The notes beneath the pieces were generated by a model. That model saw only the letters and a program-made list of their open reading frames with translations. It did no database searches and was not told where the DNA came from. The translations under genes and the position numbers were made by a program. Below are positions 6,597-50,481 of a DNA stretch of 64,000 nucleotides, piece by piece; position 1 is the stretch's first letter, and every line of letters begins with the position of its first letter. This stretch comes from an uncultured Actinomycetes bacterium (GTDB lineage Bacteria; Actinomycetota; Acidimicrobiia; IMCC26256; PALSA-610). The stretch spans positions 204,936 through 268,935 of the forward strand of contig CAVPMX010000002.1 of the NCBI GenBank assembly GCA_963706745.1. Direction: 5' to 3'.

Positions 6597-7897
6597 GCTC
6601 CTCCGGGTTCTGTGTCGGCCCCACCCCGGGCAGCCGGCAACTCGTCGTCGCGAGCGCTGCTCGTGGCTGCTCCGTCGGTGTCGAGGGCCGGGAGCACGAC
6701 GCAGAACCTCGAGCCCTCGCCCTCGCGCGACTCGACGGTGACCTCGCCGCCGTGGGCCCGCACCGTGTGCCGCACGATCGAGAGGCCGAGACCCGTCCCC
6801 CCGGTGTCGCGGCTCCGGGCACGGTCCACTCGGTAGAAGCGTTCGAAGATCCGCTCGAGGTGGCGGCTGGGGATCCCGTACCCCTCGTCGCTCACCGCTA
6901 TGGAGACGCTCCCAGCCGAGGCGGAGACCGACACCTCGACCCGCGAGCCCCTCTCCGAGTACTTGACGGCGTTCTCCAGCAGGTTCACCAGGGCGCCGAC
7001 CAGACGGCGGCGGTCCCCCGCGACAGCGGCCCCCGCGGAGCTGTCGGCGACGTCGAGGGAGGTGCCGGCGGCGACCGCCAGGGCCCTGACCCGATCGACG
7101 GCCTCGGCGACGATCTCGCGGACAGGGACCGGGTCTCTCAGCGGCGTCGCGTCGGCCTCGATCGCGCTCAGGTCGAGGAGATCGTCGACAATTCGACCTA
7201 GACGCTCCGCCTCCCGCACTATCCGCTCGGCGAGACGCTCCCTGACAGCCGCCTCCTGCGCCGTCGCTATCGTCTCGCCGAGCAGCACGACGGCTCCGAT
7301 CGGCGTTCGGAGCTCGTGGCTGACGTTGGCGACGAAGTCGCGCCGCACGCTGTCGACCCGCCGGGCGCCCGAGACGTCCTCGACGACGGCGAGCGCGCCG
7401 GCGCCCCCGCCCGCCTGCTGCAGGCGGTGCGCTCGCAGGAAGAGCTCCCGCCTCGGCGGGCCGTAGAGGCTCAGCTCGCGCGCCACTACCTCGCCTCTGC
7501 GCGCCTCGTCGAGTGCCTGCTCGACGGCCTCGTCGACGAGCGCCCCGGACGGCCCGTCGGCGCTCAGAGCATCGGCGGAGCGGTTCCGCAGCACGATCTC
7601 ACCTTCAGCACCCGAGACCACGATCGCCTCGGCCACGCCGTCGAGGGCGGCCCGCAGCAGCGCCGTCACCGTCTCGGCATCTCCGACGCGCTCGAGAACG
7701 GCTGCGGCAGCGCTCTCCAGCTCGGAGAGGACCTCCTCTGAACCTGCCGTGAGCGACACGGGTGCGCCGCTCCGAAGCCGGGCCGCTACCCCGGCCGATC
7801 TCCGCAGGTCCCTCCCGCGCGCCCGGGACACGACGAACGCTCCCGCCGCCACGGCGACCACTGCGACCACGGCGCCCCAGATCATCAGGTTGTTCAC
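6593..7897 (-). CDS. senX3: sensor histidine kinase (SenX3/PhoR-type)
   Basis: N-terminal TM helix, H-box FVANVSHELRTPI, and N/G boxes LVNLLENAVKYS and GGTGLGLSIV. Confidence 0.9.
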   Translation of the reverse strand: MNNLMIWGAVVAVVAVAAGAFVVSRARGRDLRRSAGVAARLRSGAPVSLTAGSEEVLSELESAAAAVLERVGDAETVTALLRAALDGVAEAIVVSGAEGEIVLRNRSADALSADGPSGALVDEAVEQALDEARRGEVVARELSLYGPPRRELFLRAHRLQQAGGGAGALAVVEDVSGARRVDSVRRDFVANVSHELRTPIGAVVLLGETIATAQEAAVRERLAERIVREAERLGRIVDDLLDLSAIEADATPLRDPVPVREIVAEAVDRVRALAVAAGTSLDVADSSAGAAVAGDRRRLVGALVNLLENAVKYSERGSRVEVSVSASAGSVSIAVSDEGYGIPSRHLERIFERFYRVDRARSRDTGGTGLGLSIVRHTVRAHGGEVTVESREGEGSRFCVVLPALDTDGAATSSARDDELPAARGGADTEPGGA

Positions 7898-8623: not shown

Positions 8624-9615
<992 letters not shown>

Positions 9616-9616
<1 letters not shown>

Positions 9617-9825
9617 TGGACCACCGCGCGGTCTTCTTCCTCGCGGCCTCGGCTATGTGCGCCGCGCTGTGGCCGCTCGCGCCCACGGATACGCGCTGGG
9701 TGAACGTGTGGCTCGCGGTCGCCTACGTGGTTCTCGCGCTCGCATCGCTCGCCGACTTCGTCTCGCGCCGTCGCCAGACCGGGCGAGAAGCGGCTGAACC
9801 CCCGGACTCCGCCCGCCCCACCTAG
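9616..9825 (+). CDS. small membrane protein (69 aa), coupled to pit
   Basis: ATGA overlap with the pit stop. Two hydrophobic helices (AVFFLAASAMCAALWPLA, VWLAVAYVVLALASLA). In frame with track ORF 9274..9825. Confidence 0.4.
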
Positions 9826-9866
9826 ACGAGCCGTACGCACTGCGGTCGACGGCCGGCGACCGGCCA

Positions 9867-10718
9867 TCAGCCGAAGCGACCGGTGATGTACCCCTCGGTC
9901 CGCGGGTCGGACGGGTTGGTGAAGATCTTCTCCGTTTGATCGAACTCGACGAGACGCCCGACACGGGCCCCGGAATCCTCGACCTCGGTCGTAAGGAAGG
10001 CCGTCATGTCGGAGACCCGCGCCGCCTGCTGCATGTTGTGCGTGACGATCACGATGGTGTAGTCGCGCTTCAGCTCGGTCATGAGATCTTCGATCCGCGC
10101 CGTGGCGATCGGGTCGAGCGCGGAGCACGGTTCGTCCATGAGTATCACGTCGGGCTCCACGGCGAGGCAGCGAGCTATGCAGAGCCGCTGCTGCTGGCCG
10201 CCGGAGAGAGCGAACGCGCTCTTCTTGAGCTTGTCCTTAACCTCGTCCCAGAGGGCCGCGCGCACCAACGCCTCTTCGACCGTCGAGTCGAGATCGCCGC
10301 GATTCCCGTTCACGCGCGGCCCGAACGCGACGTTGTCGTAGATCGACTTGGGGAACGGGTTCGGTTTCTGGAAGACCATCCCGATCCGGCGGCGGACCTC
10401 GACTGCGTCGACGCGCGGGTCGTACAGGTCCTCGCCGTGGTAGCGGACGTCACCGGAGACCTTCGCCCCCGGCACGAGATCGTTCATGCGGTTCAGGCAG
10501 CGCAGGAAGGTGCTCTTGCCGCATCCGGAAGGCCCGATCAGAGCGGTGATGCGCCTCTCCGGGATGTCCAGCGAGATGGCGTCGACCGCCAGGACGGACG
10601 AGTAGGCGACGGCGAGATCGCGCACCTCGAAGACCACGTGGGGCTCGGGCACCTCGGGCGCGTCGGGCGCCTCGTCGTCGTGTGCGAGCGTCGACACGTC
10701 GACGACGGTACTCGTCAT
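9867..10718 (-). CDS. pstB: phosphate ABC transporter ATP-binding protein
   Basis: Walker [13 protein letters not shown] signature [13 protein letters not shown], Walker [12 protein letters not shown], and the PstB tail [10 protein letters not shown]. Start at the MTSTVVDV codon with a GGGAGG SD. Confidence 0.95.
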
Positions 10719-10855
10719 TGACCTCCCGCCACCTCTCGAATGCACAGGGATCTCCTCCGCCACGCGGCCCTCCTCGACCCTGCGATCCGAGGTGAGTACC
10801 GCGAGCCCGCGAGCGTAGGGGGTGATCCTTGCCCGCACACGATGAGAGGGTGGCC

Positions 10856-10892
10856 GGCCCCTGAACGACCGGTGAACACTGGTTCACGGATG
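10856..10892. promoter_or_regulatory. PHO-box-like repeats in the pstB/phoU divergent spacer
   Basis: Minus strand: GTTCACCGGTC + GTTCAGGGGCC, two adjacent 11-nt units (10877-10856). Plus strand: GTTCACGGATG (10882-10892). Together they form GTGAAC-ACTG-GTTCAC. Confidence 0.5.
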
Positions 10893-38833: not shown

Positions 38834-40339
38834 ATGACCTTCCAGCCCAATCGCGGGATCCCGACTCCGCCGATGGCATTCGACGGCGGGCCCGCCGGGG
38901 TCACCGGACGCATCGCCGCTCGACGCGTCGAAGTGGACGACGCGACTCTCGCGAGCCTGCGCGGCTCCTGCGCCGAGGTGCTCACGTCGGACGACGAAGT
39001 CGTCGAGGCGAGCCGCGACTGGTGGCCTCTCGCGATGATCTGGGCGCTCGACCGGGAGGTCGGCGCCAGGGCGTCGGTCGTCGTGCGCCCGGCCGGTGCC
39101 GAGGAGGTCGCGGCGGTTCTCCGCGTCTGCAACGAGTCCGGCACCCCCGTGACGGTCGCCGCCGGCCGAAGCGGCGTCTGTGGGGGCAGCATCCCGCTGC
39201 ACGGTGGAGTCGTGCTCGATCTCACAGGTATGGCCGGCATCGTCTCGGTCGACGGGTCGTCGATGATCGTCGACGCCCTCGCCGGCACCTTCGGCGACGT
39301 GCTGGAGGACGAGCTGCGCGCCCGGCACGGTGCGACAGTCGGTCACTGGCCGCAGTCGATGGCGCTGTCGACGGTTGGGGGCTGGCTCGCGTGCCGCGGC
39401 GCCGGACAGCTCTCCACCCGCTACGGCAAGATCGAGGACATGGTCGTCGGCCTCGACGTCGTGCTCGCCGACGGCTCCCGGATCTCGACCGGCGGCGCAC
39501 CGCGCGCCGCCGTCGGCCCCGACCTCAACCAGCTCTTCGTCGGCTCGGAAGGGACGCTGGGCGTGATCACGGCCGCTCGCCTGAGGCTGCATCCCGAACC
39601 GGGTTCCGAGCGCCGGGCCGCGTACGCCTTCGAGTCGTTCACCGACGGCCTCGACGCATGTCGTCGAATCCTTCGCCGGGGCGCCACGCCCGCTGTACTG
39701 CGCCTCTACGACGCCATCGAGGCCGACCGCTCCTACCAGACCGGAGATCGGCACGTGCTGCTGGTCCTCGACGAAGGAGACGCACACATCGTCGACGCCG
39801 CGATGGCGATCGTCGACGAGGAGTGCCACGACGCGCAGAACCTCGACGTCGGCCTGGTCGGTAGGTGGATGGAGCACCGAAACGACGTCACCGCCCTGGA
39901 GGCGCTCCTTCGCCGCGGCTTCGTGGTCGACACGATGGAGATCGCAGCCCCGTGGTCGCGCCTGGCGCACATCTACGAGCGCGCCACCGACGCGATCCGC
40001 TCGGTCGAGCACTCCATCGTCGCTTCGGCGCACCAGTCCCACTCGTACACCGACGGCGCATGCCTCTACTTCACCTTCGCGGGCAACCCGCCTGCGGAGG
40101 GCAGGGAGAGCTACTACCGGGCCGCCTGGGATGCCGGCACGAGGGCCGTCCTGGCGGAGGGTGGGGCCCTCTCCCACCACCACGGCATCGGCCTCAATCG
40201 CGCCCGATTCGTGCGCGAGGCACTCGGGCCCGCATTCACGGTCCTGGAGGCGACGAAGCGGGCTCTCGACCCCAACGGCATCCTCAACCCGGGCAAGCTC
40301 GCCCTCGACTCCCCCTTCGGAGCGGTCCCCTGGCCGTAG
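38834..40339 (+). CDS. FAD-linked oxidase (GlcD / alkyl-DHAP synthase-like)
   Basis: FAD-binding PCMH domain (VVRPAGAEEVAAVLRVCNESGTPVTVAAGRSGVCGGS) and C-terminal HHHGIG motif. GAGGAGG SD. Confidence 0.85.
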   Translation: MTFQPNRGIPTPPMAFDGGPAGVTGRIAARRVEVDDATLASLRGSCAEVLTSDDEVVEASRDWWPLAMIWALDREVGARASVVVRPAGAEEVAAVLRVCNESGTPVTVAAGRSGVCGGSIPLHGGVVLDLTGMAGIVSVDGSSMIVDALAGTFGDVLEDELRARHGATVGHWPQSMALSTVGGWLACRGAGQLSTRYGKIEDMVVGLDVVLADGSRISTGGAPRAAVGPDLNQLFVGSEGTLGVITAARLRLHPEPGSERRAAYAFESFTDGLDACRRILRRGATPAVLRLYDAIEADRSYQTGDRHVLLVLDEGDAHIVDAAMAIVDEECHDAQNLDVGLVGRWMEHRNDVTALEALLRRGFVVDTMEIAAPWSRLAHIYERATDAIRSVEHSIVASAHQSHSYTDGACLYFTFAGNPPAEGRESYYRAAWDAGTRAVLAEGGALSHHHGIGLNRARFVREALGPAFTVLEATKRALDPNGILNPGKLALDSPFGAVPWP

Positions 40340-40383
40340 AGCCGCGGCGGGGGCGGTCGGACGACTGAGAGAGCGGTGAGCGA

Positions 40384-41838
40384 ATGAGCGTTCTGGTCAT
40401 CGACGTCGGGACGAGCGGGGTGCGCGTCGCGGTCGTCCGCCCCGACGTGTCGGTCGCCTTCGACCGTCATGTGCAGACCCTTCCGACTTCGCCGTCCCCC
40501 GGAATGGTCGAGCTCGACGCGACCGCTCTCGCCTCCACGGCGCTGCAGATCGCATTCGACGCGCTCGACGCCACCGGTCGGGTGGACGCCGTCGGCATCT
40601 CGAACCAGAGAGCATCGGTGGTCGTCTGGGATCGTGCGACCGGGGTACCCGTCTCCCCCGGCATCGGCTGGCAGGATCTGCGAACCGTCGGCCGATGCCT
40701 CGAGCTGCGCTCCCAAGGTCTGCGAATCGCACCGAACCAGTCGGCTACGAAGCTCGAGCACATCCTCGACGCGGTCGACCCCGACCGTTCCGCCGACCTC
40801 TGCTTCGGCACCGTCGACTCGTGGATCGCGTGGGCCCTGACAGACGGGGCGCTCCACGTGACCGACGCGACCAACGCCGCCGTCACGGGCCTGCTCGCGC
40901 CCGAGGCGATGGCATGGGACGCCACTGTGCTCGAGACTCTCCGGATCCCCGCGTCGATGCTCCCGGCTGTGGTCGACTCGGCCTGCCCGTCGGGTCGGGC
41001 GATCGGCGAGGCGACGGCGCTGCCGGGGGCTCCGCCGATCACCGCGATGCTCGGCGACCAGCAGGCGTCGCTCGCCGGCCAGGCCTGTGTGCGCACCGGC
41101 GACGCGAAGATCACCTTCGGCACCGGCGGCATGCTCGACCTCAACGTCGGGGAGCGCCCCCCTTCGTTCGACCGGCGCGGTCCGGCCGGCACCTTCCCGA
41201 TCGTGGCCTGGCGACACGGCGGCGCCGACACGTGGGGGATCGAGTCGATCATGCTCGCGGCAGGGACGAACGTCGAGTGGCTGCGAGACGACCTCGGCCT
41301 CGTCGAGGCCGCCGCGGAGTCGCACGACGTCGCCTCCCTCTGCGCCGACACCGGCGGCGTCGTGTACGTCCCCGCGCTGCTGGGCCTCGGCACACCCCAC
41401 TGGGATTACGGCGCCCGGGGCGCTCTCCTCGGCATCACACGCGGTACGGGCCGCCCCGAGGTGGTCCGCGCCGTCCTCGAGGGCGTCGCGCACCGTGGGG
41501 CCGACCTCGTCGAGGCGGCCGAGGCCGACTCGGGGACGACGATCCCCGTGCTGCGCGTCGACGGCGGGATGAGCGACAACCCTACGTTCGTACAGGCGCT
41601 CGCCGACGCTTCACAGCGGCCCGTAGAGGTCTCCCCCGTACGGGAAGCGACCGCACTGGGCGCCGGGCTGCTGGCAGGCATCGCCGTGGGTCATCGCGCC
41701 GGCATCGACGACATCGCGTCCACGTGGTCACCGCGGCTGCGCGTCGAGCCCGTTCGAGCGCTGGATCGCGACCGCTGGCGCGAAGCCTGCTCACGCGCGG
41801 GCGGATGGATCGGTGCCCTCTCCGGCATCGACTTCTGA
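40384..41838 (+). CDS. FGGY-family carbohydrate kinase (glycerol kinase-like)
   Basis: VLVIDVGTSGVRVAVV, ISNQRASVVVWD, FGTGGMLD, VDGGMSDNPTFVQALAD. Confidence 0.85.
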   Translation: MSVLVIDVGTSGVRVAVVRPDVSVAFDRHVQTLPTSPSPGMVELDATALASTALQIAFDALDATGRVDAVGISNQRASVVVWDRATGVPVSPGIGWQDLRTVGRCLELRSQGLRIAPNQSATKLEHILDAVDPDRSADLCFGTVDSWIAWALTDGALHVTDATNAAVTGLLAPEAMAWDATVLETLRIPASMLPAVVDSACPSGRAIGEATALPGAPPITAMLGDQQASLAGQACVRTGDAKITFGTGGMLDLNVGERPPSFDRRGPAGTFPIVAWRHGGADTWGIESIMLAAGTNVEWLRDDLGLVEAAAESHDVASLCADTGGVVYVPALLGLGTPHWDYGARGALLGITRGTGRPEVVRAVLEGVAHRGADLVEAAEADSGTTIPVLRVDGGMSDNPTFVQALADASQRPVEVSPVREATALGAGLLAGIAVGHRAGIDDIASTWSPRLRVEPVRALDRDRWREACSRAGGWIGALSGIDF

Positions 41839-41871: not shown

Positions 41872-42303
41872 TCAGGTCGCGGCGGCCGTGGCGTTCGCCG
41901 CAGCGGCGTCGGCAGCGGTCCGCTCGTCGGCGAGGTCACGCGCGAGCTTCAACCCGAAACCGGCGGAGAGCGCCGCCACGACGCCGACCACGCGCGCGTG
42001 CCAGCCGAGCTTCGGCGAGAAGAGACAGACCGCTGCATCGACGCCGTCGGCGATCGCCGACATGCCGAGCCACTCAGGTCCGTGACTCCCCTCCTTGATC
42101 GCGCTCAACGACCCGATGCCGAGCACGACGTCGCGCGCTCCCATCATTCGGGCGACCGCTCGCGTCGTGGGTCCGGTGGCGCCGGCCCCCAGCCAGGATC
42201 GGGCCGACGTCGCCGGGGCGACGAGCAGAGCGAGCCCTGCGACGGCACGGGTCCGGGTGAAGACGAGCGCTGTGCTTCGGAGGTCCTGCTCCATGGCCGT
42301 CAT
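41872..42303 (-). CDS. small hydrophobic membrane protein
   Basis: Predicted helices (AVAGLALLVAPA, VVLGIGSLSAI, VVGVVAALSAGFGL). Its start overlaps the stop of the upstream gene by 4 nt. The start choice (42303 vs 42294) is uncertain. Confidence 0.5.
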   Translation of the reverse strand: MTAMEQDLRSTALVFTRTRAVAGLALLVAPATSARSWLGAGATGPTTRAVARMMGARDVVLGIGSLSAIKEGSHGPEWLGMSAIADGVDAAVCLFSPKLGWHARVVGVVAALSAGFGLKLARDLADERTAADAAAANATAAAT

Positions 42304-43289
42304 CCTCGCGCGCCGTCCGGCGGTCGCACCCACTCTGCCCAACCGGAGCCTTCTGCGCCTTCTCCCGAGCGGGCACGGCAGAGGCACCGCACGACGTGCC
42401 CTCCCCGCTCGGAGCCACCCGGGGCCCAGAGGTCATCGAGCGACACCGGGAACGCTGCAATTACATCGACGTCGAGGTCGACCGTGTGGTTGACGACGGA
42501 GCGCGCTGCCACGGGGATGCGGTCGGCGTCCCGGTGGACCTCGCCGACCAGCTCGTCGACGGGTCGACCGCCGGCCTCTGCGCTCCACAGGTACCCAGCC
42601 GGCTCACCGCCGGGCGGCGGCAGCATCAGCCCCGTGGCGAGCGACTCCCCCAGTTGGAACGCGGCGCGGCCGTCCCAGCGCGTCCACCACGGAGGCCCGC
42701 CCCACGAGTGCCCCCGCGCGCCGAGCCCCGAGATGGCGAGACTCATCGACGTCCCCAGATGGAGCTCGCCGTGAACCGAGCAGACCTGCTCGTAGAGGCC
42801 CTCCACGAGCTCACCGCCTCCGCGGCCGCGATCTCCGGTCCGGTCGAGCCGGCCCGTGCCGAACGTCATCGGCGGGGCGGTCGACTCGACGTCGAGCTCG
42901 AACGCGATCGGGAGGCGCTCCCCGTACTCGCTCGCCAGCGCCTCGACCGGGTCCTCCACGCGGACCCCGTACGTCTCGAGGCCGACCGTCCAGTAGTGCA
43001 GAGGCTCCTCGGCCACGTGATCGGCCCACATCTGCTCGCCGCGGACGAGGAGGCGTCCCGCGCCCGGCAGCGGTAGGTCGTGGTCGCGGACGGCGACGCG
43101 TGTGCCGTCGGGGAGAACCACGTGCGCCCAGTACCAAGTGCGCGCCCGCGACGGGAATGAGGCGACGCGAACCGCGACGCCGGCGCCGTCGCCCGTCGAG
43201 ACCTCGAACCACCATGCCTCGCACCAAGCCGGACCCGCGTCCGGGCCCGGTTCGTGGGAGTGCTCGTCGTCCGTGGAGACGGTCGGCAT
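42300..43289 (-). CDS. hypothetical protein (329 aa), family not recognised
   Basis: Last 329 codons of track ORF 42300..44495, from MPTVSTDDEH. Trp-rich, non-repetitive (AWCEAWWFEV, HSWGGPPWWTRWDG). The upstream part of that track ORF is an off-frame overlap of the next gene. Confidence 0.6.
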   Translation of the reverse strand: MPTVSTDDEHSHEPGPDAGPAWCEAWWFEVSTGDGAGVAVRVASFPSRARTWYWAHVVLPDGTRVAVRDHDLPLPGAGRLLVRGEQMWADHVAEEPLHYWTVGLETYGVRVEDPVEALASEYGERLPIAFELDVESTAPPMTFGTGRLDRTGDRGRGGGELVEGLYEQVCSVHGELHLGTSMSLAISGLGARGHSWGGPPWWTRWDGRAAFQLGESLATGLMLPPPGGEPAGYLWSAEAGGRPVDELVGEVHRDADRIPVAARSVVNHTVDLDVDVIAAFPVSLDDLWAPGGSERGGHVVRCLCRARSGEGAEGSGWAEWVRPPDGARG

Positions 43290-43333
43290 CGCCCATCCCT
43301 CTGCGCAGCCGCGGCCCGGTCGGACCGCTCGGC

Positions 43334-44467
43334 TCACGGGATCAGAGGGTAGTAGGGACCGTCGCGAGTGATCTCGGGTGTGCTCTCGAAAGCCTCGAGC
43401 ATCGGGTAGAGGTCGAGACTGTCGCGAGGCATGCTCCAGTCGAGATCGCCGGTACATCCCGCGGCGTCGGCGAACGGTCTGATGAACGAGTAGTAGACGT
43501 ATGCCCCCGCGTCGATCTTCTCGCGCCTCTCCATGCCGGCGATCAGCCTGTAGCAGCGCTTCTGGGCGTCCTTCACGGCGGCGGCCAGAGCGTCGGCACC
43601 GGCGGAGTCGATCGGCGCGAGTCGCCCGCCCGACGTGTCGAAGAGGCCGAACGACTGCACGTGCGGCAGGTAGTCCTCCGGCTCGGTCAGCGAGGTGCCC
43701 CAGTCGGTCACCCTCAGGCGGACGCCGTCGAGCACGAACGCCGCGAGCACGTTGTCGTTCGGGAGGTCGCACGCGACCTCGGCACTCCACGGGAAATCGG
43801 AGACACCGAACTTGTTGAACGCCCGCAGCAGCAGCACGCGTCCGTCGGGGAGGACGTACGGGCCGGTGTCCTGGTAGCCCGCACGCGTGTCGAAGTAGAG
43901 GAGGAAGAGGTAGGAGGTGAGGAGCGCATTGAGGCGCTGGATCTTGGAGCGCCGCTCGTCGGTGACGGGTTCGCACCCGGCTACCACCTCGTCGACGTAT
44001 TCGGAGTACGGGCGGTTGACGCCACCGGTGTCCCACGCCTGGTGCGCGGCCCCCGCGTGGTACGCCCGGGCGGCGCGCTCCCAGAACTCGACCATGATCC
44101 CGCAGCGCGCGAGGTCTTCGTCCCAGTCGATCATCCCGGCAGTTGCGAGGACGTTGCGCCCGGTCAAGAAGATGTTGGTGAGCGACCACAGGTGCACCGC
44201 ATCGACCTGGTTGCCGACCGTGCGACCGGTCGCGCCGATCTCCTCGGGCGGCCTCGCCGCCGCGACCACTCGCAGCATCTCCGGGTGGCGTCGATAGCAC
44301 TCGATGCCCGAGATGAGGATGTATGCCGTCACCGGGATGAGGGCCGACTCCAACGCCGTGCGCTGCACGGTGAGCGTGTAGGAGATCTCCCCGTGGTACT
44401 CCAGCCACCGATTGACGGCGGCCTTGTCCCACCCGGCCGGCGGCTCGAGAGCTCCCGCGCCGCTCAC
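43334..44467 (-). CDS. hypothetical protein (377 aa), family not recognised
   Basis: Balanced, globular-looking composition (WLEYHGEISYTLTVQRTALESALIPVTAYILISGIECYRRHPEML...YVYYSFIRPFADAAGCTGDLDW). 4-nt overlap with the upstream gene. Confidence 0.65.
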   Translation of the reverse strand: MSGAGALEPPAGWDKAAVNRWLEYHGEISYTLTVQRTALESALIPVTAYILISGIECYRRHPEMLRVVAAARPPEEIGATGRTVGNQVDAVHLWSLTNIFLTGRNVLATAGMIDWDEDLARCGIMVEFWERAARAYHAGAAHQAWDTGGVNRPYSEYVDEVVAGCEPVTDERRSKIQRLNALLTSYLFLLYFDTRAGYQDTGPYVLPDGRVLLLRAFNKFGVSDFPWSAEVACDLPNDNVLAAFVLDGVRLRVTDWGTSLTEPEDYLPHVQSFGLFDTSGGRLAPIDSAGADALAAAVKDAQKRCYRLIAGMERREKIDAGAYVYYSFIRPFADAAGCTGDLDWSMPRDSLDLYPMLEAFESTPEITRDGPYYPLIP

Positions 44468-44811
44468 GCGGGCCGCCGGACGACGCCCAGCTCACCGCTG
44501 CAGTCGATCTCGACCGTGTCGCCGTTCGCCGGCTCGTCGCCGAGGGTGGTGCCCATGACGCACGGCACCTGGTACTCGCGACTCACGATCCCCACGTGGC
44601 TCTGCGGGGTGCCCGAGAGGCAGACGACGGCCGTGAGCTCGTCGAAGATCGGGGCGAGGAACGTCGCGCCCGCGTCGGCCACGCAGGCCACGACCCCCTC
44701 GGCCGACCCGTCCATCAGATCGAGGACGTCGTCGGGGGAGTCGAGCCGCCGCCACACTCCCTGCACCGGTGCCGCGTCGAAGACCTTTGTTCCGCTTCCG
44801 ATCTCGCTCAT
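44464..44811 (-). CDS. stand-alone PEP-utilising-enzyme mobile (swivel phosphohistidine) domain protein
   Basis: GVVACVADAGATFLAPIFDELTAVVCLSGTPQSHVGIVSREYQVPCVMG resembles the PF00391 swivel domain with the candidate phospho-His. ATG 44811 has a GGAGCGGAG SD. An in-frame 31-codon extension from ATG 44904 is possible. Confidence 0.8.
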   Translation of the reverse strand: MSEIGSGTKVFDAAPVQGVWRRLDSPDDVLDLMDGSAEGVVACVADAGATFLAPIFDELTAVVCLSGTPQSHVGIVSREYQVPCVMGTTLGDEPANGDTVEIDCSGELGVVRRPA

Positions 44812-45055
44812 GATCTCCGCTCCTGGCCCTGCGGGCCGGGCCGCTCGGGCCACGCTCGGCCAGCGCGGGACGCGAGCTCTCTCGTACAGGGCAGCCTCGC
44901 TCATGATCTCCGCTCCTGGCCCTGCGGGCCGGGCCGCTCGGGCCACGCTCGGCCGCGCGGGACGCGAGCTCTCTCGTGCTGGGCAGCCTCGCTCATGATC
45001 TCCGCTCCTGGCCGCGCGGGACGCGAGCTCTCTCGTACAGGGCAGCCTCGCTCAT
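44812..45055 (-). repeat. tandem array of three MIRU-like units (93, 92 and 59 bp) forming uORFs in the operon leader
   Basis: Minus-strand ATGs at 45055, 44996, 44904 and 44811. uORF-C: MSEAALYERARVPRGQERRS* (ATGA overlap). uORF-B: MSEAAQHERARVPRGRAWPERPGPQGQERRS* (ATGA overlap). Unit A (93 bp) reads through in frame into the gene. The 3' ~45 bp are near-identical to the 35.1-kb units. Confidence 0.9.
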
Positions 45056-45166
45056 CGGCGGGGGAGCCTACCGAGGACCGCACGGGGAGGCGAAACGCGC
45101 AGCGCCGGTGACCGAGAGCGGCTCCGGCGTGCCTTCGCGGAGTCCCGCCCCGTACGATCGCAGCCC

Positions 45167-45775
45167 GTGAGCGATCTACCGCCCGACCACGACGCCTGGG
45201 AGCTCCTGCACGACCTCCGTCTGCGGGGCCTGGTCGAGGAGTCCGAGCACGAGCACGCCGACCTCCTGGTCGAGATCGGCTTCGCCGTCCGCAAGCGGAC
45301 CTACCTCGCCGTGACCCCCGAAGGCCGGGAGCGCCACGCCGCATGGGTGCGCGTCGCCGACGACGCACCCGAGTACGACGCCGCTCGCCGCGCCTACGAG
45401 GCCTTCCTGCCGCTCAACGTCGAGCTGATCCGCCTCTGCTCCGACTGGCAGGTCCGTCCGGGCAACGTCGCGAACGACCACACCGATCTCCGCTACGACT
45501 GGGGCGTCGTCGACCGCCTGCGTGCGCTCGACGAACGAGCCGGTGGCGTCATCCGCCGCCTGGCGAGGGCCGTACCCCGATTCGCCTCATACCGACCCCG
45601 CCTGCGCGACTCCCTGCGCCGTGTCGAGGACGGGGACAACGACTGGTTCACCTCACCCCGCATCGACTCGTATCACACGGTCTGGATGCAGATGCACGAG
45701 GACCTGCTGGCGACCCTCGGCCTGTCCCGTGCGGACGAGGACCCCGGGCCAGAGCCTCCTCCGCCGGGCGCCTGA
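45167..45775 (+). CDS. hypothetical protein (202 aa)
   Basis: GTG start. Non-repetitive sequence (…DWQVRPGNVANDHTDLRYDWGVVDRLRALDERAGG…DSYHTVWMQMHEDLLATLG). Divergent from the PEP-domain operon. Family not recognised. Confidence 0.6.
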   Translation: MSDLPPDHDAWELLHDLRLRGLVEESEHEHADLLVEIGFAVRKRTYLAVTPEGRERHAAWVRVADDAPEYDAARRAYEAFLPLNVELIRLCSDWQVRPGNVANDHTDLRYDWGVVDRLRALDERAGGVIRRLARAVPRFASYRPRLRDSLRRVEDGDNDWFTSPRIDSYHTVWMQMHEDLLATLGLSRADEDPGPEPPPPGA

Positions 45776-45841: not shown

Positions 45842-47365
45842 GTGTCGGAGGACCTGTTGGGCGAATCGGTGCGCGAGCTCGTGGAGCGGATCCGCCCCGC
45901 CGTGCTCGCCTGGCCCGAGGCCGAGGGCGCCGACTCCGACGGTGTGACGGCCGGCCTGCTGGCGGAGGCACGGCGGATCGCCGCGGCGTTCGTCGCCGCC
46001 GACGGGCGCCTCAACGACCGACAGCTCATCGCAATGCGCCTGGCGTTCGGAGCGAGAGACCCCGAGCTCGCGAATGGACCGCTCACCGCTCTGCGCACGA
46101 CCGACGTCATCACCCGCGACGCCGGCTTCACGTCGCAGCCGTCACCGCTCTTCCTGCAGCTGGCCGAGTACGACCGCTCCCACGGGACCTCCACTGCGTG
46201 GTCGTACTACGAGGCAGCGTTGGGCGTCGCGCACGCTGTCTGCGCCCTCGCCGACATACCGACGCGCGAGGTGCTCGACTCGCTCGACCGCTATCGCGCG
46301 ATGCTCCTCGAGAACCTCAGGGCTTCCTACATCGTGCGCCCGAAGCCCCCGGAGACCACCGGCGCGCGACCCGACGGGTCGAGACAGGGCGACGCCGGCA
46401 AGGCGGAGTCCGACGCCGTGGCCGCGAGATGGCACGACCCGGCCGCTCTCGGCGGACTGCCCGGTGAGGAGCCCGCCGTCGCCCCCACGCTCGACGGCCT
46501 CCTCGACGAGCTCGACGCGTTGGTCGGCCTGACCGACGTGAAGACCGAGGTGCGGCTCATCGTCAACCTGACGCGTGTCGAGAAGATGCGCGGCGACCAC
46601 GGCCTGCCGGTGCCGGATCGCAGCAGGCACCTCGTCTTCGTCGGCAATCCGGGCACCGGCAAGACGACCGTCGCCCGCCTCCTCTCCCGCATCTACGGGG
46701 TCCTCGGCGTGCTCGCGAAGGGCCACCTCGTCGAGACCGATCGCTCGGGCCTCGTGGCCGGTTACGTCGGCCAGACCGCCATTCGGGTGCAGGAGACAGT
46801 GACATCCTCCCTGGGCGGCACGCTCTTCATCGACGAGGCGTACTCGCTCAGCGGCGGAGGAGACCGCGACTTCGGCGCCGAGGCAGTGGCGACGCTCCTC
46901 AAGCTGATGGAGGACCGGCGCGACGAGCTGGTCGTCGTCGCCGCCGGGTACCCGAAGCCCATGCAGCGCTTCCTCGACTCCAACCCGGGGCTGCGCTCCC
47001 GGTTCCCGAAGACGATCCTCTTCCCCGATTACTCGACCGACGACCTCGTGAGGATCTTCGCCTCGATCGGCGAGGGCCAGAAGTACGTCGCTACCTCCGA
47101 TGCACTCGGGGTCGTGCGCGGATTCCTCGACGCGCAGGAGCGCGGCCCGACGTTCGGGAACGCCCGCCTGGCGCGCAACCTCTTCGAGGCCTCGGTCGCC
47201 CACCACGCGAGCAGGGTCGTCGAGCTGGGGGCGCCCGGCGTCGAAGAGCTCAGCACTCTGCGCCCCGAAGACATCCCCGCCGCGGGCGCCCAGCTCGACC
47301 CGGCGCACGACCCCGAACACGACACCGCGCACGGCACCGCGGCTTGCGGAGATGCGCCTTGCTGA
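45842..47365 (+). CDS. AAA+ ATPase of the CbxX/SpoVK/EccA type with an unassigned N-terminal domain
   Basis: LVGLTDVKTEVRLIVN, Walker A GNPGTGKTTVARLL, Walker B TLFIDEAYSL, and VVVAAGYPKPMQRFLDSNPGLRSRF. The N-terminal ~230 aa may be TerB-like (AAFVAADGRLNDRQLIAMRLAF); that assignment is inference only. Confidence 0.85.
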   Translation: MSEDLLGESVRELVERIRPAVLAWPEAEGADSDGVTAGLLAEARRIAAAFVAADGRLNDRQLIAMRLAFGARDPELANGPLTALRTTDVITRDAGFTSQPSPLFLQLAEYDRSHGTSTAWSYYEAALGVAHAVCALADIPTREVLDSLDRYRAMLLENLRASYIVRPKPPETTGARPDGSRQGDAGKAESDAVAARWHDPAALGGLPGEEPAVAPTLDGLLDELDALVGLTDVKTEVRLIVNLTRVEKMRGDHGLPVPDRSRHLVFVGNPGTGKTTVARLLSRIYGVLGVLAKGHLVETDRSGLVAGYVGQTAIRVQETVTSSLGGTLFIDEAYSLSGGGDRDFGAEAVATLLKLMEDRRDELVVVAAGYPKPMQRFLDSNPGLRSRFPKTILFPDYSTDDLVRIFASIGEGQKYVATSDALGVVRGFLDAQERGPTFGNARLARNLFEASVAHHASRVVELGAPGVEELSTLRPEDIPAAGAQLDPAHDPEHDTAHGTAACGDAPC

Positions 47366-47376
47366 CCTCTCCCGGG

Positions 47377-48492
47377 ATGTCTCCGGTCCTCAAGCGCGCT
47401 CTTGCACTCGTCGCCGCCATCGGGATGGTCGGAGCCGCGCTCGTCATCCGATCGGTCGTCTTCGACGACGAGACCGCGGGAACCGATGGCACGGGCGGCG
47501 ACGGAACCGTCATCGGCGCCGCGCGACTCATCTGCGCCACCGAGCTCGAGAGCGCATGCCGCTCCCTGGCCGATCGACTCGGCGACGACATCACGGTCGC
47601 GACAGAGGATGCCGGCGCGACCGCAGCGCGGCTCGTCGACGCCGCACCCGGCGACGACCCCGGTCTCGACGGATGGCTGACCCTCTCGCCATGGCCTCAG
47701 ACGGTCGCGGACTCACGTGCGCGGTCCAACGCCCGACCGGTCCTCGGAGCGGTCTCCGATCCGGTGGCTCGTTCGCCCCTGGTCATGGTGGTGCGCTCCG
47801 ACCGCGCCGAGGTGCTCGCCCCGCGCTGCCCGGACCGCACCCTGGGCTGGCGCTGCATAGGCGATGCTGCCGGCCGCCCGTGGAGCGAACTCGGCGGCGA
47901 GGAGACCTGGGGCAGCGTCAAGCTCGCCCACGAGGACGCGACCGGCTCAGCATCGGGAGCGCTCCTGGTGGGCCAGGCGGTGGGGCACTACCTCGCGACA
48001 CCCGAGATACCCGCGACGGCGATCTCCACGATCGACTGGGAGACGAGCGACGGCTTCGCTGCCTGGTTCCAGCGCCTCGAGGGCGCCGTGCCACGCAACG
48101 GCTTCGACCCTCCCGCCGGGAGCCCGTTCGCCCAGTTCCTCCAGGGGCGCTTCGTCGAGTACGACATCGTCGCCGCGCTCGAGGCCGAGGTCGGCCCTGC
48201 CCTCGCCCGGGCGTCCGGGCTGGGGGACTCGGTGGTGGTGGCTTACCCTGAGCCCGTGGGCACCGCCGACGTCGTCTTCGTACCGCTCCTCCGCAGCGAC
48301 TCCGCAGATCGCCTGCGCGAGTCGGCCACCGGGCCCGAGGCGCGCTCGTCCATCGCTGCGGCGGGCTGGCGCGTCGAGGGCGAAGACCGCGCTGCAGGGG
48401 TCCGCGACTCACCGCCGCTGCCCGACGGGAACGGTCTTCCCTCGGCAGGCGCAATCGACGCGCTGACGTACGCTGTGGGAGGAGGTCACCCG
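47377..48492 (+). CDS. membrane-anchored solute-binding-like protein (no stop codon before the next gene's ATG)
   Basis: First third of the 1045-aa track ORF. N-terminal TM helix (LALVAAIGMVGAALVI). The body is paralogous to the SBP-like part of the following protein. Confidence 0.55.
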
Positions 48493-50481
48493 ATGACCAG
48501 CCGCTCTTCGACCCGGGAGATCAGGGGCGACAACGGGCGCCGCCGCCCACGCCCCGGGATCCGGTTGTTCGGCGCGCTTCTCGCCGTCGCGCTCACTGCC
48601 GCGGCCTGCGGGGGCGACGACTCCGAGGTGTTGGGCGACGACGCCGACCTGCTCGACCCGGGCGACTGCCTCCCAGTCGACATGGCCGTCTCGTCGGAGA
48701 AGATCGCACTGCTCACAGATCTCGCGCAGGAGTTCAACGCCTCCGACGCCGCCGACCTCGGCGATGGCGAGTGTGTGTTCGTCAGGGTCCAGAAGAAGGC
48801 CTCCGGAAAGGCGATGCAGCTGCTCTCCGACGGCTGGTCCGACGAGGCCACCGACGGCCCCCAACCGGTCGTCTGGTCGCCCGCCGCCTCGTCGTGGGGC
48901 GCAATCCTCAACCAGCGCCTCGCCGAGCGCGGTGCCGACCCGATGGTCGGCTCTGCCGAGCCGTTCATGCTCACCCCACTGGTGATCGCGATGCCGGAGC
49001 CGATGGCCGAAGCGCTCGGGTACCCGCAGACGCCTATCGGATACGCCGACATCATCGCCCTCGCCCAGGACCCCGAAGGCTGGGGTGCGTTCGGGCATCC
49101 TGAGTGGGGCCCGTTCCGGCTCGGCAAGACGAACCCCAACTACTCGACCAGCGCACTCTCGGCGACGATCGCGCAGTACTACGCGGCGACGGGCAAGACG
49201 AGGGGGCTCTCGCTCGAAGACCTCGATCGGCCCGCCGTGGTGACCTTCGCGAAGGCGGTGGAGGGTGCCGTCGTCCACTACGGCGACATCACCATGACGT
49301 TCCTCAACAACTGGTTCCGCAACGACGCCCGCGGCACCGCCCTCACGTATGTCTCAGCCGTCGCCGTCGAGGAGAAGTCGGTCATCGACTACAACCTCGG
49401 CAACCCCGACGGCATCCTCGATCCGGGAGAGGACCCGCGCAAGCCGCGGGTCCCTCTCGTCGCGGTCTACCCGAAGGAAGGCACGCTCTACAGCGACAAC
49501 CCCTTCATGGTCCTCGACGCTCCGTGGGTCACCGATCAGGAGGCGGCTGCGGCGGAGCGCTTCGGCGACTACGTCATGCGCCCCGAAGCCCAGGAGCGGG
49601 TCGCGGAGTACGGGTTCCGGCCCGGCAACCCCGAGGTGGCCATCGGGGGCGGTGTCACGACGGCGAACGGCGTGGACCCGGACCAGCCGGAGACCCTCCT
49701 GGAGGTCCCGGAACCGGCAGTGCTGAGCGGCCTGCTCGACAGGTGGGACGGCGTCCGCAAGCGGGCGCGCGTGCTGATCGTCCTCGACGTCTCCGGCTCG
49801 ATGGGCGAGGAGGGCGACACCGTCACGGGAGAGACCAAGCTGGATCTGGCGAAGGACGCCGTGACCGATGCACTCGACCAGTTCCAGACCGACGACGACG
49901 TCGGCCTGCGCGTCTTCACCACCGACCTCGTCGACGAACCGACCGACTACGCCGACCTGGTTCCCGTCGAGGCGATCGGCGGACAGCGCGAAGGGCTGGC
50001 ACGACGCATCGACGACCTCATCCCGATGAACGGCACACCGCTCTACACCGTCACGCAGGGCTCCTACCGCGACATGCTCGACGCGTTCGTCCCCGATCGC
50101 ATCAACGCGATCGTCCTCTTGACCGACGGCCGCAACGAGGATCCGCGCAACGAGGACCTCGAAGCGTTGCTCAAGGAGCTGCGCGCGCAGGCCGAGGGCG
50201 AGAGCGCGAAGCCCGTGCGGATCTTCCCGATCGCCTACGGCGCCGACGCCGACCTCGACACGCTCAGGCGGATCGCGGAGGCTACGAACGCCGCCGTATA
50301 CGACGCATCCGACCCGACGACGATCTCGTCGGTGTTCACGGCGGTGGTCAGCAATTTCCAGGGACGCCCGTGGCCCGCGGTGTCCTCCGGCGGAGATGTC
50401 CGCGGTAGTCGGCGCGCACACGGCGCCCCGATGGGTCGTGTGAGATCAGCATGGCGATCGACCGCCTTCCAGAGCACCTGA
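48493..50481 (+). CDS. lipoprotein with a solute-binding-like domain plus a C-terminal VWA domain
   Basis: Internal ATG 48493 has a GGGAGGAGG SD. Signal/lipobox LFGALLAVALTAAACGG. VWA MIDAS VLIVLDVSGSMGEEG...LLTDGRNED. The C-terminal ~40 aa after VVSNF look non-native. Confidence 0.8.
   Translation: MTSRSSTREIRGDNGRRRPRPGIRLFGALLAVALTAAACGGDDSEVLGDDADLLDPGDCLPVDMAVSSEKIALLTDLAQEFNASDAADLGDGECVFVRVQKKASGKAMQLLSDGWSDEATDGPQPVVWSPAASSWGAILNQRLAERGADPMVGSAEPFMLTPLVIAMPEPMAEALGYPQTPIGYADIIALAQDPEGWGAFGHPEWGPFRLGKTNPNYSTSALSATIAQYYAATGKTRGLSLEDLDRPAVVTFAKAVEGAVVHYGDITMTFLNNWFRNDARGTALTYVSAVAVEEKSVIDYNLGNPDGILDPGEDPRKPRVPLVAVYPKEGTLYSDNPFMVLDAPWVTDQEAAAAERFGDYVMRPEAQERVAEYGFRPGNPEVAIGGGVTTANGVDPDQPETLLEVPEPAVLSGLLDRWDGVRKRARVLIVLDVSGSMGEEGDTVTGETKLDLAKDAVTDALDQFQTDDDVGLRVFTTDLVDEPTDYADLVPVEAIGGQREGLARRIDDLIPMNGTPLYTVTQGSYRDMLDAFVPDRINAIVLLTDGRNEDPRNEDLEALLKELRAQAEGESAKPVRIFPIAYGADADLDTLRRIAEATNAAVYDASDPTTISSVFTAVVSNFQGRPWPAVSSGGDVRGSRRAHGAPMGRVRSAWRSTAFQST

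Follow-up and report, generated by a model that had tools for sequence, protein, structure and literature searches.

The window analysed here is a 64,000-nucleotide stretch (G+C about 70%) of a contig from an uncultured bacterium of the Acidimicrobiia. Its minus strand carries an operon of four genes, named A to D in the order of transcription, and a fifth gene, E, is transcribed divergently from A. As judged by profile matches, conserved motifs and natural fusions, A is a bona fide stand-alone phosphohistidine swivel domain, A, B and E form the conserved functional core of the system, and C is distantly homologous to 25-phosphosteroid lyase (25-PSL). The reading that we put forward, tentatively and with somewhat less than even confidence, is that A brings phosphate to a substrate that B binds, with the assistance of E; A would be charged in trans, and C would eliminate the phosphate from the product.

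Genes A, B and E and their natural fusions

Gene A was matched to the mobile domain of phosphoenolpyruvate (PEP)-utilizing enzymes (PF00391) with an E-value of 7.7e-10 and 38.7 bits, against a cut-off of 23.1, over profile positions 3–70 of 72. The motif at the catalytic histidine, His72, is LSGTPQSH(72)VGIVSREYQVPCVMG, and the loop SGTPQSHVGIV fits the G-x-x-x-(S/C)-H-x-x-(I/V) pattern. An earlier reading, made from the letters of the window without database searches (the sequence-only reading), had picked out this residue as a candidate phosphohistidine; it was invariant in all 32 of 32 aligned swivels, whether split, fused or PPDK_N-linked. The top NCBIfam matches of A were the C-terminal swivels of PRK08296, PEP synthase, PigC and rifampin phosphotransferase (RPH)-type proteins.

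Gene B gave no match in Pfam or NCBIfam, 54 of its homologues scanned singly against Pfam had no family in common, and the B family profile retrieved nothing at E≤10 from the PDB sequences. The homologues number more than 1426 in 90%-identity clusters, every one labelled 'hypothetical', and are represented by 427 clusters at 50% identity (E≤0.001). An AlphaFold2 model based on 54 homologues (pLDDT 92.6, pTM 0.91) is helical in its N-terminal half, contains a region with a six-stranded sheet and has two long helices at the C-terminus. When this model was compared by Foldseek with 350,542 PDB chains, among which the RPH entries 5FBS, 5FBT and 5HV1 (named in PMC12167813) are expected to be present, nothing was found at E≤0.001, and the best template-modelling (TM) scores were 0.10–0.17; as modelled, B has a predicted fold without a solved structural relative. 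The residues present in at least 90% of the sequences (split, fused and distant) include R104, R195, R215, Y49, Y204, Y325 and W227, a set that would suit a phosphate or anion site beside a hydrophobic pocket. B was also considered as a diverged ATP-grasp domain and as a relative of C, and both ideas were discarded (hhalign probabilities of 0.7% against PPDK_N and below 1% against C). A distant branch of the family (P0212 and P0275) has no swivel and a different C-terminal extension of ∼190 residues, with a faint match to DUF4172 (Fic N-terminal) only (E 0.011).

Five of the ten long B representatives scanned (P0164, P0213, P0254, P0276 and P0298) carry an N-terminal PF00391 domain. With P0254 as the query, ∼120 proteins of ∼770 residues were among the matches listed, from Conexibacter, Paraconexibacter (two paralogues), Baekduia, Pseudonocardia and Actinomycetospora, annotated merely as 'PEP-utilizing enzyme'. 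The order in these proteins is A-B-E, with the swivel N-terminal to B and E at the C-terminus. The forms seen thus comprise three separate genes (this window), A-B, B-E and A-B-E. Because natural A-B and A-B-E fusions exist, the physical cooperation of A and B as functional partners is strongly supported by sequence comparison.

The C-terminal ∼180 residues of the fusions end in S-x-H-T-V-W-M-E-x-H-E-D-Y-L, and E ends with the same motif. In a blastp search, E matched 119 fusion proteins at their C-terminal ends (E 1e-24 to 1e-34), and it adjoins A divergently in L001, L002, L003 and L007/L008 (related loci are given by our numbers), as it does in the window, where the two are separated by 355 bp. 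Since E matches the fusion C-termini and adjoins A, the conserved core appears to be A+B+E and to reach beyond 41872–44811. The sequence-only reading had placed the operon within those limits and had missed E.

No match to E was found in Pfam or NCBIfam at E≤1, helix-turn-helix (HTH) families included, and its profile yielded coiled-coil noise only among the PDB sequences. The AlphaFold2 model, based on E and 103 fusions (pLDDT 91.2), shows a helix (residues 8–20), a strand (22–24), a short helix (31–36), a two-stranded wing (40–49) and a bundle of long helices (68–191); the HTH site, between strand 1 and the wing, holds just the 6-residue helix. Foldseek matches were weak: PadR with E 0.056, probability 0.93 and TM 0.25, and the MarR-type Hpr with 68 columns at a root-mean-square deviation of 1.8. 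The orthologue of E in L002 is labelled 'MarR family transcriptional regulator' by PGAP. A full-length winged helix-turn-helix is present in the more distant fusions P0247 and P0276, and is reduced to one short helix in E of the window and in most fusions. The best-conserved positions of E (H15, H57, R138, H170, H177, E178 and D179) lie mostly in the bundle. We take E to be a subunit that derives from a regulator and doubt that it binds DNA; a regulatory role is a serious rival to a part in phosphotransfer.

The lyase relative C, the operon and its leader

Gene C encodes a protein with 15 tryptophans (4.6%). It passes the threshold of DUF7064 (PF23212, 30.1 bits against a cut-off of 24.7) and stays below that of DUF7065 (PF23213, 15.3 bits against 27); most of its 35 detectable homologues have both domains, on neither of which was published work found. 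The C family profile (hmmsearch) matched the PDB entries 9fzn, 9g2i and 9g4c, all of them 25-PSL, at E 4e-4. Alignment of the enlarged C family with the PSL family by hhalign gave a probability of 96.3% (E 1.9e-9, 171 columns) and takes in the Y-E-Q...G-x-R-[DH]-x-SWG block; the probability was 52% for C as a single sequence, and the identity to 25-PSL is ∼16%. C has this block as GARGHSWG, which aligns with GSRDRSWG in 9fzn; its G190, R192, H194, W196 and G197 do not vary within the C family. Besides the window, L001, L003 and L018 retain the block. Because of this homology, a role as donor or acceptor module is less likely for C than that of a phosphoester lyase, which would act once the phosphate has been transferred.

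According to the sequence-only reading, both B and C belonged to families that it did not recognise, and both were candidates for novel donor and acceptor modules. For B the lack of a known family was borne out in Pfam, NCBIfam and the PDB, and the partnership with A is upheld by the fusions. For C neither claim stood: it passes the DUF7064 threshold, is related to PSL and is degenerate in some operons.

The four minus-strand genes were confirmed within 41872–44811, as first read, and are listed with the other features in the table. A and B overlap by 4 nt (GTGA), as do C and D (ATGA), and a gap of 44 nt with the Shine-Dalgarno-like sequence GAGGGA separates B from C. The frame of C is open upstream for 731 codons (42300..44495, minus strand), through B in a different frame, an artefact typical of high-GC DNA, and the true start of C is ATG 43289, which matches the 329-aa protein on record. 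Sequences identical to A, B, C and E have already been called as genes in public assemblies (on a 567-kb contig); the exact 143-aa sequence of D was absent from the same collections.

Features of the operon and its divergent neighbour (positions in the window)
Feature	Position	Strand	Basis or remark
Gene A (swivel domain, 115 aa)	44464..44811	-	sole Pfam match PF00391
Gene B (377 aa, GTG start, unnamed family)	43334..44467	-	open reading frame and AlphaFold2 model
Gene C (329 aa, DUF7065/DUF7064)	42300..43289	-	PF23212 above threshold
Gene D (143 aa, small probable membrane protein)	41872..42303	-	hydrophobic segments
Gene E (202 aa, degenerate winged helix and helical bundle)	45167..45775	+	divergent from A; homologous to fusion C-termini
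92-nt tandem repeat, 2.4 copies, 5' region of gene A	44803..45020	-	TRF
TAGGCT (-10-like) + 9 nt + ATG, probable ancestral start of A	45053..45070	-	conserved in relatives

The nearest named relatives are metagenome-assembled genomes (MAGs) of the Acidimicrobiia. Using tblastn of A to D, the order A-B-C-D was found in eight related loci from about six distinct genomes, with identities of 73–93% for A, 60–91% for B, 35–83% for C and 43–89% for D. A further operon, A-B-C-(MOSC)-D in L018, was met when homologues of C were looked up, which brings the recurrence to nine further loci in about seven distinct genomes. Because of this recurrence the arrangement is not due to chance, and the claim of the sequence-only reading that the operon is uncharacterised and its gene association conserved can be upheld. 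None of the observations named there as counting against it was made: B and C did not prove to belong to well-characterised families unrelated to phosphotransfer, the genes stay together in other genomes and the histidine is conserved. A scan of genome contigs with B as the single query protein gave two loci, and this approach reaches close relatives only.

B representatives of odd length (P0175, P0195, P0293 and others) were considered as B-C fusions; they had no Pfam matches and proved on inspection to be frameshifted read-throughs. These low-quality metagenomic 'proteins' run from B into a C-like gene and so provide extra independent cases of B-C adjacency, though not of fusion. Apparent frameshifts also break B, C and D of L002 (6001..8520) and C of L003 (9086..9790), and B of L002 is split by NCBI into two fragments, MCZ7535943 and MCZ7535944; these are probably errors of long-read MAG assembly and not pseudogenes.

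Gene D has three to four weakly hydrophobic segments rich in Ala and Gly (Kyte-Doolittle maximum 1.2–1.6) and is, judging by them, probably a membrane protein. It stands at the end of the operon in all loci of the Acidimicrobiia type. Against DUF4267 it scored 15.9 bits (E 0.013), below the cut-off of 27.8.

The 5' region of A contains a tandem repeat with a TRF score of 401 and 96% matches, including three exact copies of a 26-mer where none was expected. Every copy contains GGAGCGGAGATC-ATG-AGCGAG. The same architecture is present in the 91%-identical relative L002 (5380..5666), which shares the conserved half of the unit with the window but has another variable half; within each genome all copies agree in the latter, which implies concerted evolution or independent expansions. 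The sequence TAGGCTCC-N7-ATG/GTG is found immediately upstream of A in L001, L002 and L007/L008. In L001 and L007/L008, which have no repeats, the region between E and A measures just a few dozen bases, suggesting a very compact divergent promoter region. Because TAGGCT, 9 nt and ATG/GTG directly precede A in these repeat-free relatives, a leaderless or near-leaderless ancestral start of A at 45055 is suggested, with TAGGCT as a putative promoter element. The ATG at 45055 opens an open reading frame (ORF) of 20 codons, the stop of which overlaps the next ATG at 44996 (ATGA); the latter opens an ORF of 31 codons whose stop overlaps ATG 44904, and 44904 is in frame with the ATG of A at 44811.

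The sequence-only reading had described this region as a repeat leader with upstream ORFs. The repeat itself was substantiated by TRF and the 26-mers, whereas no family in Rfam was matched and the folding energy was no better than that of shuffled sequences (z 0.11). The leader held no terminator-like sites, and a generic sigma-70 scan was empty. A riboswitch or attenuator was rejected on these results. The leader has the appearance of a tandemly duplicated gene start and not of a structured regulatory RNA. A second, independent type of repeat occurs at the start of A in another Acidimicrobiia lineage, as an in-frame 15-nt repeat encoding (Q/E)IGTG in the N-terminus (L004 ∼7625..7660, L005 ∼7595..7660 and L006 1..30), with three copies in L004 and five in L005.

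Two pairs of plus-strand genes flank the module and lie outside it: an FAD-linked oxidase (501 aa) and an FGGY sugar/glycerol kinase (484 aa) at 38834..41838, and an AAA+ ATPase with an AAA_lid_6 domain (507 aa) and a 1045-aa ORF at 45842..50481. The FGGY/FAD-oxidase pair was seen again in L003, L004/L005, L007 and L018, with a glycerol-3-phosphate-dehydrogenase-like gene beside it in L004/L005 and L007, and AAA+ genes recurred in L003 and L018.

Phosphate donor, proposed mechanism and rival explanations

The neighbourhoods of the fused form were compared in six loci (L009–L014). The gene directly after the fusion is C-like (DUF7065/7064) in L011 and L012, as is the gene directly after B in the split loci L001, L003 and L018. 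In L009, L010 and L014 it encodes a VadK-like protein of 509–518 residues with PPDK_N and PEP-utilizers domains, and genes of the PSL-like, APH and DUF7064 types lie within a few kb. In L010 (Paraconexibacter) a true 25-PSL orthologue of 360 residues (E 7e-36 to 9fzn) adjoins the fused gene; its 72%-identical counterpart in L009 lies ∼7 kb upstream of the fusion. L010 also holds a 656-aa APH-DUF7065-DUF7064 fusion. The Paraconexibacter cluster as a whole (L010 10307..14941; L014 3656..4729 and 9310..10866) combines A-B-E, PPDK_N+swivel, the 25-PSL orthologue and APH-DUF7065-DUF7064 downstream of P450, aldehyde dehydrogenase and SDR genes, and is a candidate kinase/lyase dehydration locus in an aerobic actinobacterium. 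The surroundings of the fusion loci (P450, aldehyde dehydrogenase, SDR, luciferase-like monooxygenase, acyl-CoA dehydrogenase, enoyl-CoA hydratase, and TetR and PucR regulators) point to the catabolism of hydrophobic compounds and thus suggest a hydrophobic substrate.

VadK (Rv1127c), which has the PPDK_N+swivel architecture, autophosphorylates on histidine (PMC13400623). Because a VadK-like gene follows the fusion in three of the six loci and the window lacks one, the donor of the phosphate is most likely encoded outside the operon. The window contains no gene for an APH kinase, PSL, P450, alpha/beta-hydrolase or MOSC protein; in the absence of the first three, A and B are the only candidates for phosphotransfer beside C.

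In the proposed scheme, A would act as a mobile carrier, charged on His72 in trans by an ATP-grasp protein of the PPDK_N type (VadK-like or PpsB/HpeI-like) encoded elsewhere in the genome. Charged A would dock on B, with E helping as a dedicated accessory or regulatory subunit, and would pass its phosphate to a small molecule bound by B, which would bear a hydroxyl group and probably be hydrophobic. The docking and transfer site on B may be marked by the superfamily-wide arginine triad R104/R195/R215 together with aromatic residues. C would then take over the product of A and B and remove phosphate from the phosphoester to give an alkene, so that the net reaction would be an ATP-driven dehydration, and D may hold the hydrophobic substrate at the membrane or pass it on.

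Several observations weigh against this scheme. No PPDK_N gene was found in the window by tblastn or by a hidden Markov model (HMM) search over the six-frame ORFs, and the flanks of the Acidimicrobiia loci (about 8 kb on either side) hold no ATP-grasp or PEP-binding donor; charging in trans is therefore an assumption. The PPDK_N neighbours of the fusions have a swivel of their own, which makes a direct transfer from ATP-grasp to A less obvious, and in L013 the gene after the fusion is neither C-like nor PPDK_N. B has no detectable similarity to known substrate- or nucleotide-binding domains, its role being read solely from fusion and conservation, and E, which resembles PadR/MarR-type regulators and is transcribed divergently, would fit a purely regulatory role equally well. 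C is shortened and has lost the R-x-H-x-WG block in L004/L005 and L007/L008, so it is not obligatory to the phosphotransfer core. Two of the three distant C-like genes sampled had neither A/B nor APH neighbours, and the supposition that C-family proteins always stand beside a kinase was dropped on this account. Finally, the housekeeping-like synteny in the Acidimicrobiia gives no clue to the substrate.

A signalling module would account for part of the data: E would be a MarR/PadR regulator, B a ligand sensor and A a receiver, phosphorylated on histidine by a VadK-like kinase, that modulates E; elsewhere the three would be fused into a one-component regulator. The divergent position of E, the name given to its orthologue by PGAP and the nature of its top Foldseek matches (PadR, VanR, MarR-type and IclR-type winged-helix regulators) all agree with this, as do the frequent PucR-type regulators at the fusion loci and the VadK-like PPDK_N+swivel proteins next to the fusions, which belong to the regulatory autophosphorylating kinases (PMC13400623). 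We consider it unlikely. The HTH of E is neither matched by a Pfam or NCBIfam model nor represented by more than the 6-residue helix, every Foldseek match lies above E 0.05 with TM ∼0.25, and the strongest conservation is in the bundle (H170/H177/E178/D179/R138) and not in a recognition helix. B, moreover, is conserved in the manner of an enzyme (60% identity across the class, with the arginine triad), and the steady linkage to a gene of a lyase family fits metabolism.

The model of the sequence-only reading was a self-contained split dikinase, in which B is a new ATP or PEP donor that charges A, and C is the acceptor or substrate module. It draws on the missing canonical donor domain in the window and the Acidimicrobiia flanks, on the invariant surface of B, rich in Arg, His and Asp and thus suited to phosphoanions, and on the tight translational coupling of the genes. 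B has no P-loop and no similarity to ATP-grasp or PEP-utilizers_C, however; C is homologous to a phosphoester lyase, not a phospho-acceptor, and is degenerate in some operons, and canonical PPDK_N donors stand beside the fused A-B-E in three of six loci. Such a self-contained enzyme is quite improbable. More improbable still is that A/B/E and C share no more than a housekeeping synteny and that A is charged by, and serves, a canonical PEP synthase or PPDK. Genes for FGGY kinase, FAD oxidase, glycerol-3-phosphate dehydrogenase, malate dehydrogenase and fumarase are indeed syntenic with them in the Acidimicrobiia, and C-like genes can stand alone. Against this, A-B and A-B-E fusions occur in distant orders, which largely refutes the idea for A-B-E, a C-like gene directly follows the fusion in unrelated contexts (L011 and L012), and the A/B and C/D junctions are 4-nt overlaps.

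Within the phosphotransfer-and-elimination scheme, a more specific proposal, which we hold to be possible though doubtful, is that B is a new catalytic fold that takes the phosphate of the swivel and, with E, phosphorylates an unactivated alcohol group of a hydrophobic metabolite, either endogenous or from the environment, from which the DUF7065/7064 lyase then eliminates it. In a bolder variant B may be a new donor domain for ATP, PEP or polyphosphate, which would make the operon self-sufficient. If the proposal is true, it describes a widespread, previously unrecognised 'dikinase-phospholyase' dehydration route of actinobacteria whose mechanism differs from that of the APH-type pair of 25-hydroxysteroid kinase (25-HSK) and 25-PSL. 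Swivel-histidine enzymes (PPDK, PEP synthase, enzyme I of the phosphotransferase system, RPH, PpsAB/HpeHI) are a small and well-studied set, to which a new branch would be added, with a free carrier of 115 residues, a partner whose predicted fold lacks a solved relative and a third subunit derived from a winged-helix regulator. The family is large, with hundreds of 50%-identity clusters over the Acidimicrobiia, Solirubrobacterales and Pseudonocardiales, and has been annotated to date as 'hypothetical' or 'PEP-utilizing enzyme' only. The link to PSL leads to a testable hypothesis on the chemistry, phosphorylation followed by elimination, and to a candidate function for DUF7064/DUF7065; ATP-dependent dehydration of unactivated alcohols may be far commoner than the single example from Sterolibacterium.

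Comparison with known systems

PpsAB is the phenylphosphate synthase, and RPH is the single-chain relative of PpsAB, CreHI and HpeHI. In RPH and in the two-component dikinases PpsAB, CreHI and HpeHI the swivel histidine carries phosphate from the ATP-grasp domain to the substrate-binding domain, the last three being established examples of multi-component dikinases in which the ATP-grasp part is a subunit of its own (PMC12167813). The system described here would resemble PpsAB, CreHI and HpeHI in having a phosphohistidine swivel with a separate, here proposed, substrate domain and in distributing the components over several polypeptides. A has a serine immediately before the catalytic histidine, as in PpsA and CreH, and lacks the regulatory threonine of PEP synthase. 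Its best NCBIfam matches are the C-terminal swivels of the ∼600-aa PRK08296 proteins (PMC12167813). Unlike the corresponding part of RPH, B does not appear to be an RPH-type substrate domain, since neither Foldseek against the PDB nor comparison with PRK08296 and PRK06241 gave a match, and in contrast to the RPH-type dikinases the swivel precedes its partner in the fusions and is a separate protein of 115 residues in the window. PpsAB, CreHI and HpeHI have no counterpart of the extra subunit E, and they do have the ATP-grasp subunit that is not encoded in this operon. By this analogy the system would work like the multi-component dikinases, yet it departs from them in two defining features, the RPH-type substrate domain and, in this window, the adjacent ATP-grasp subunit.

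Overall, the swivel histidine of PF00391 is shared with VadK, PPDK and PEP synthase, whereas A has neither an ATP-grasp domain nor the PEP/pyruvate TIM barrel, and B is unrelated to either. The 25-PSL removes phosphate from 25-phospho-steroids made by the APH-family kinase 25-HSK, and the two enzymes thereby bring about an ATP-dependent dehydration (PMC8449060, PMC11061730). As in the 25-HSK/25-PSL pair of Sterolibacterium denitrificans, a putative phosphotransfer gene lies beside a gene of the PSL family, C being the distant homologue of 25-PSL, and the loci of the fused form hold true PSL orthologues and APH-DUF7065-DUF7064 fusions. The differences are that 25-HSK is a one-polypeptide APH enzyme that works through a ternary complex (PMC8449060) and not a phosphohistidine relay, and that the host of the operon is an Acidimicrobiia MAG without a context of steroid degradation. 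E resembles the PadR/MarR regulators in its N-terminal winged-helix-like unit, the helical domain that follows and its position divergent to the operon; it departs from them in having no HMM match, a truncated HTH and a conserved polar cluster in the bundle, and in most relatives it is attached C-terminally to an enzyme-like protein.

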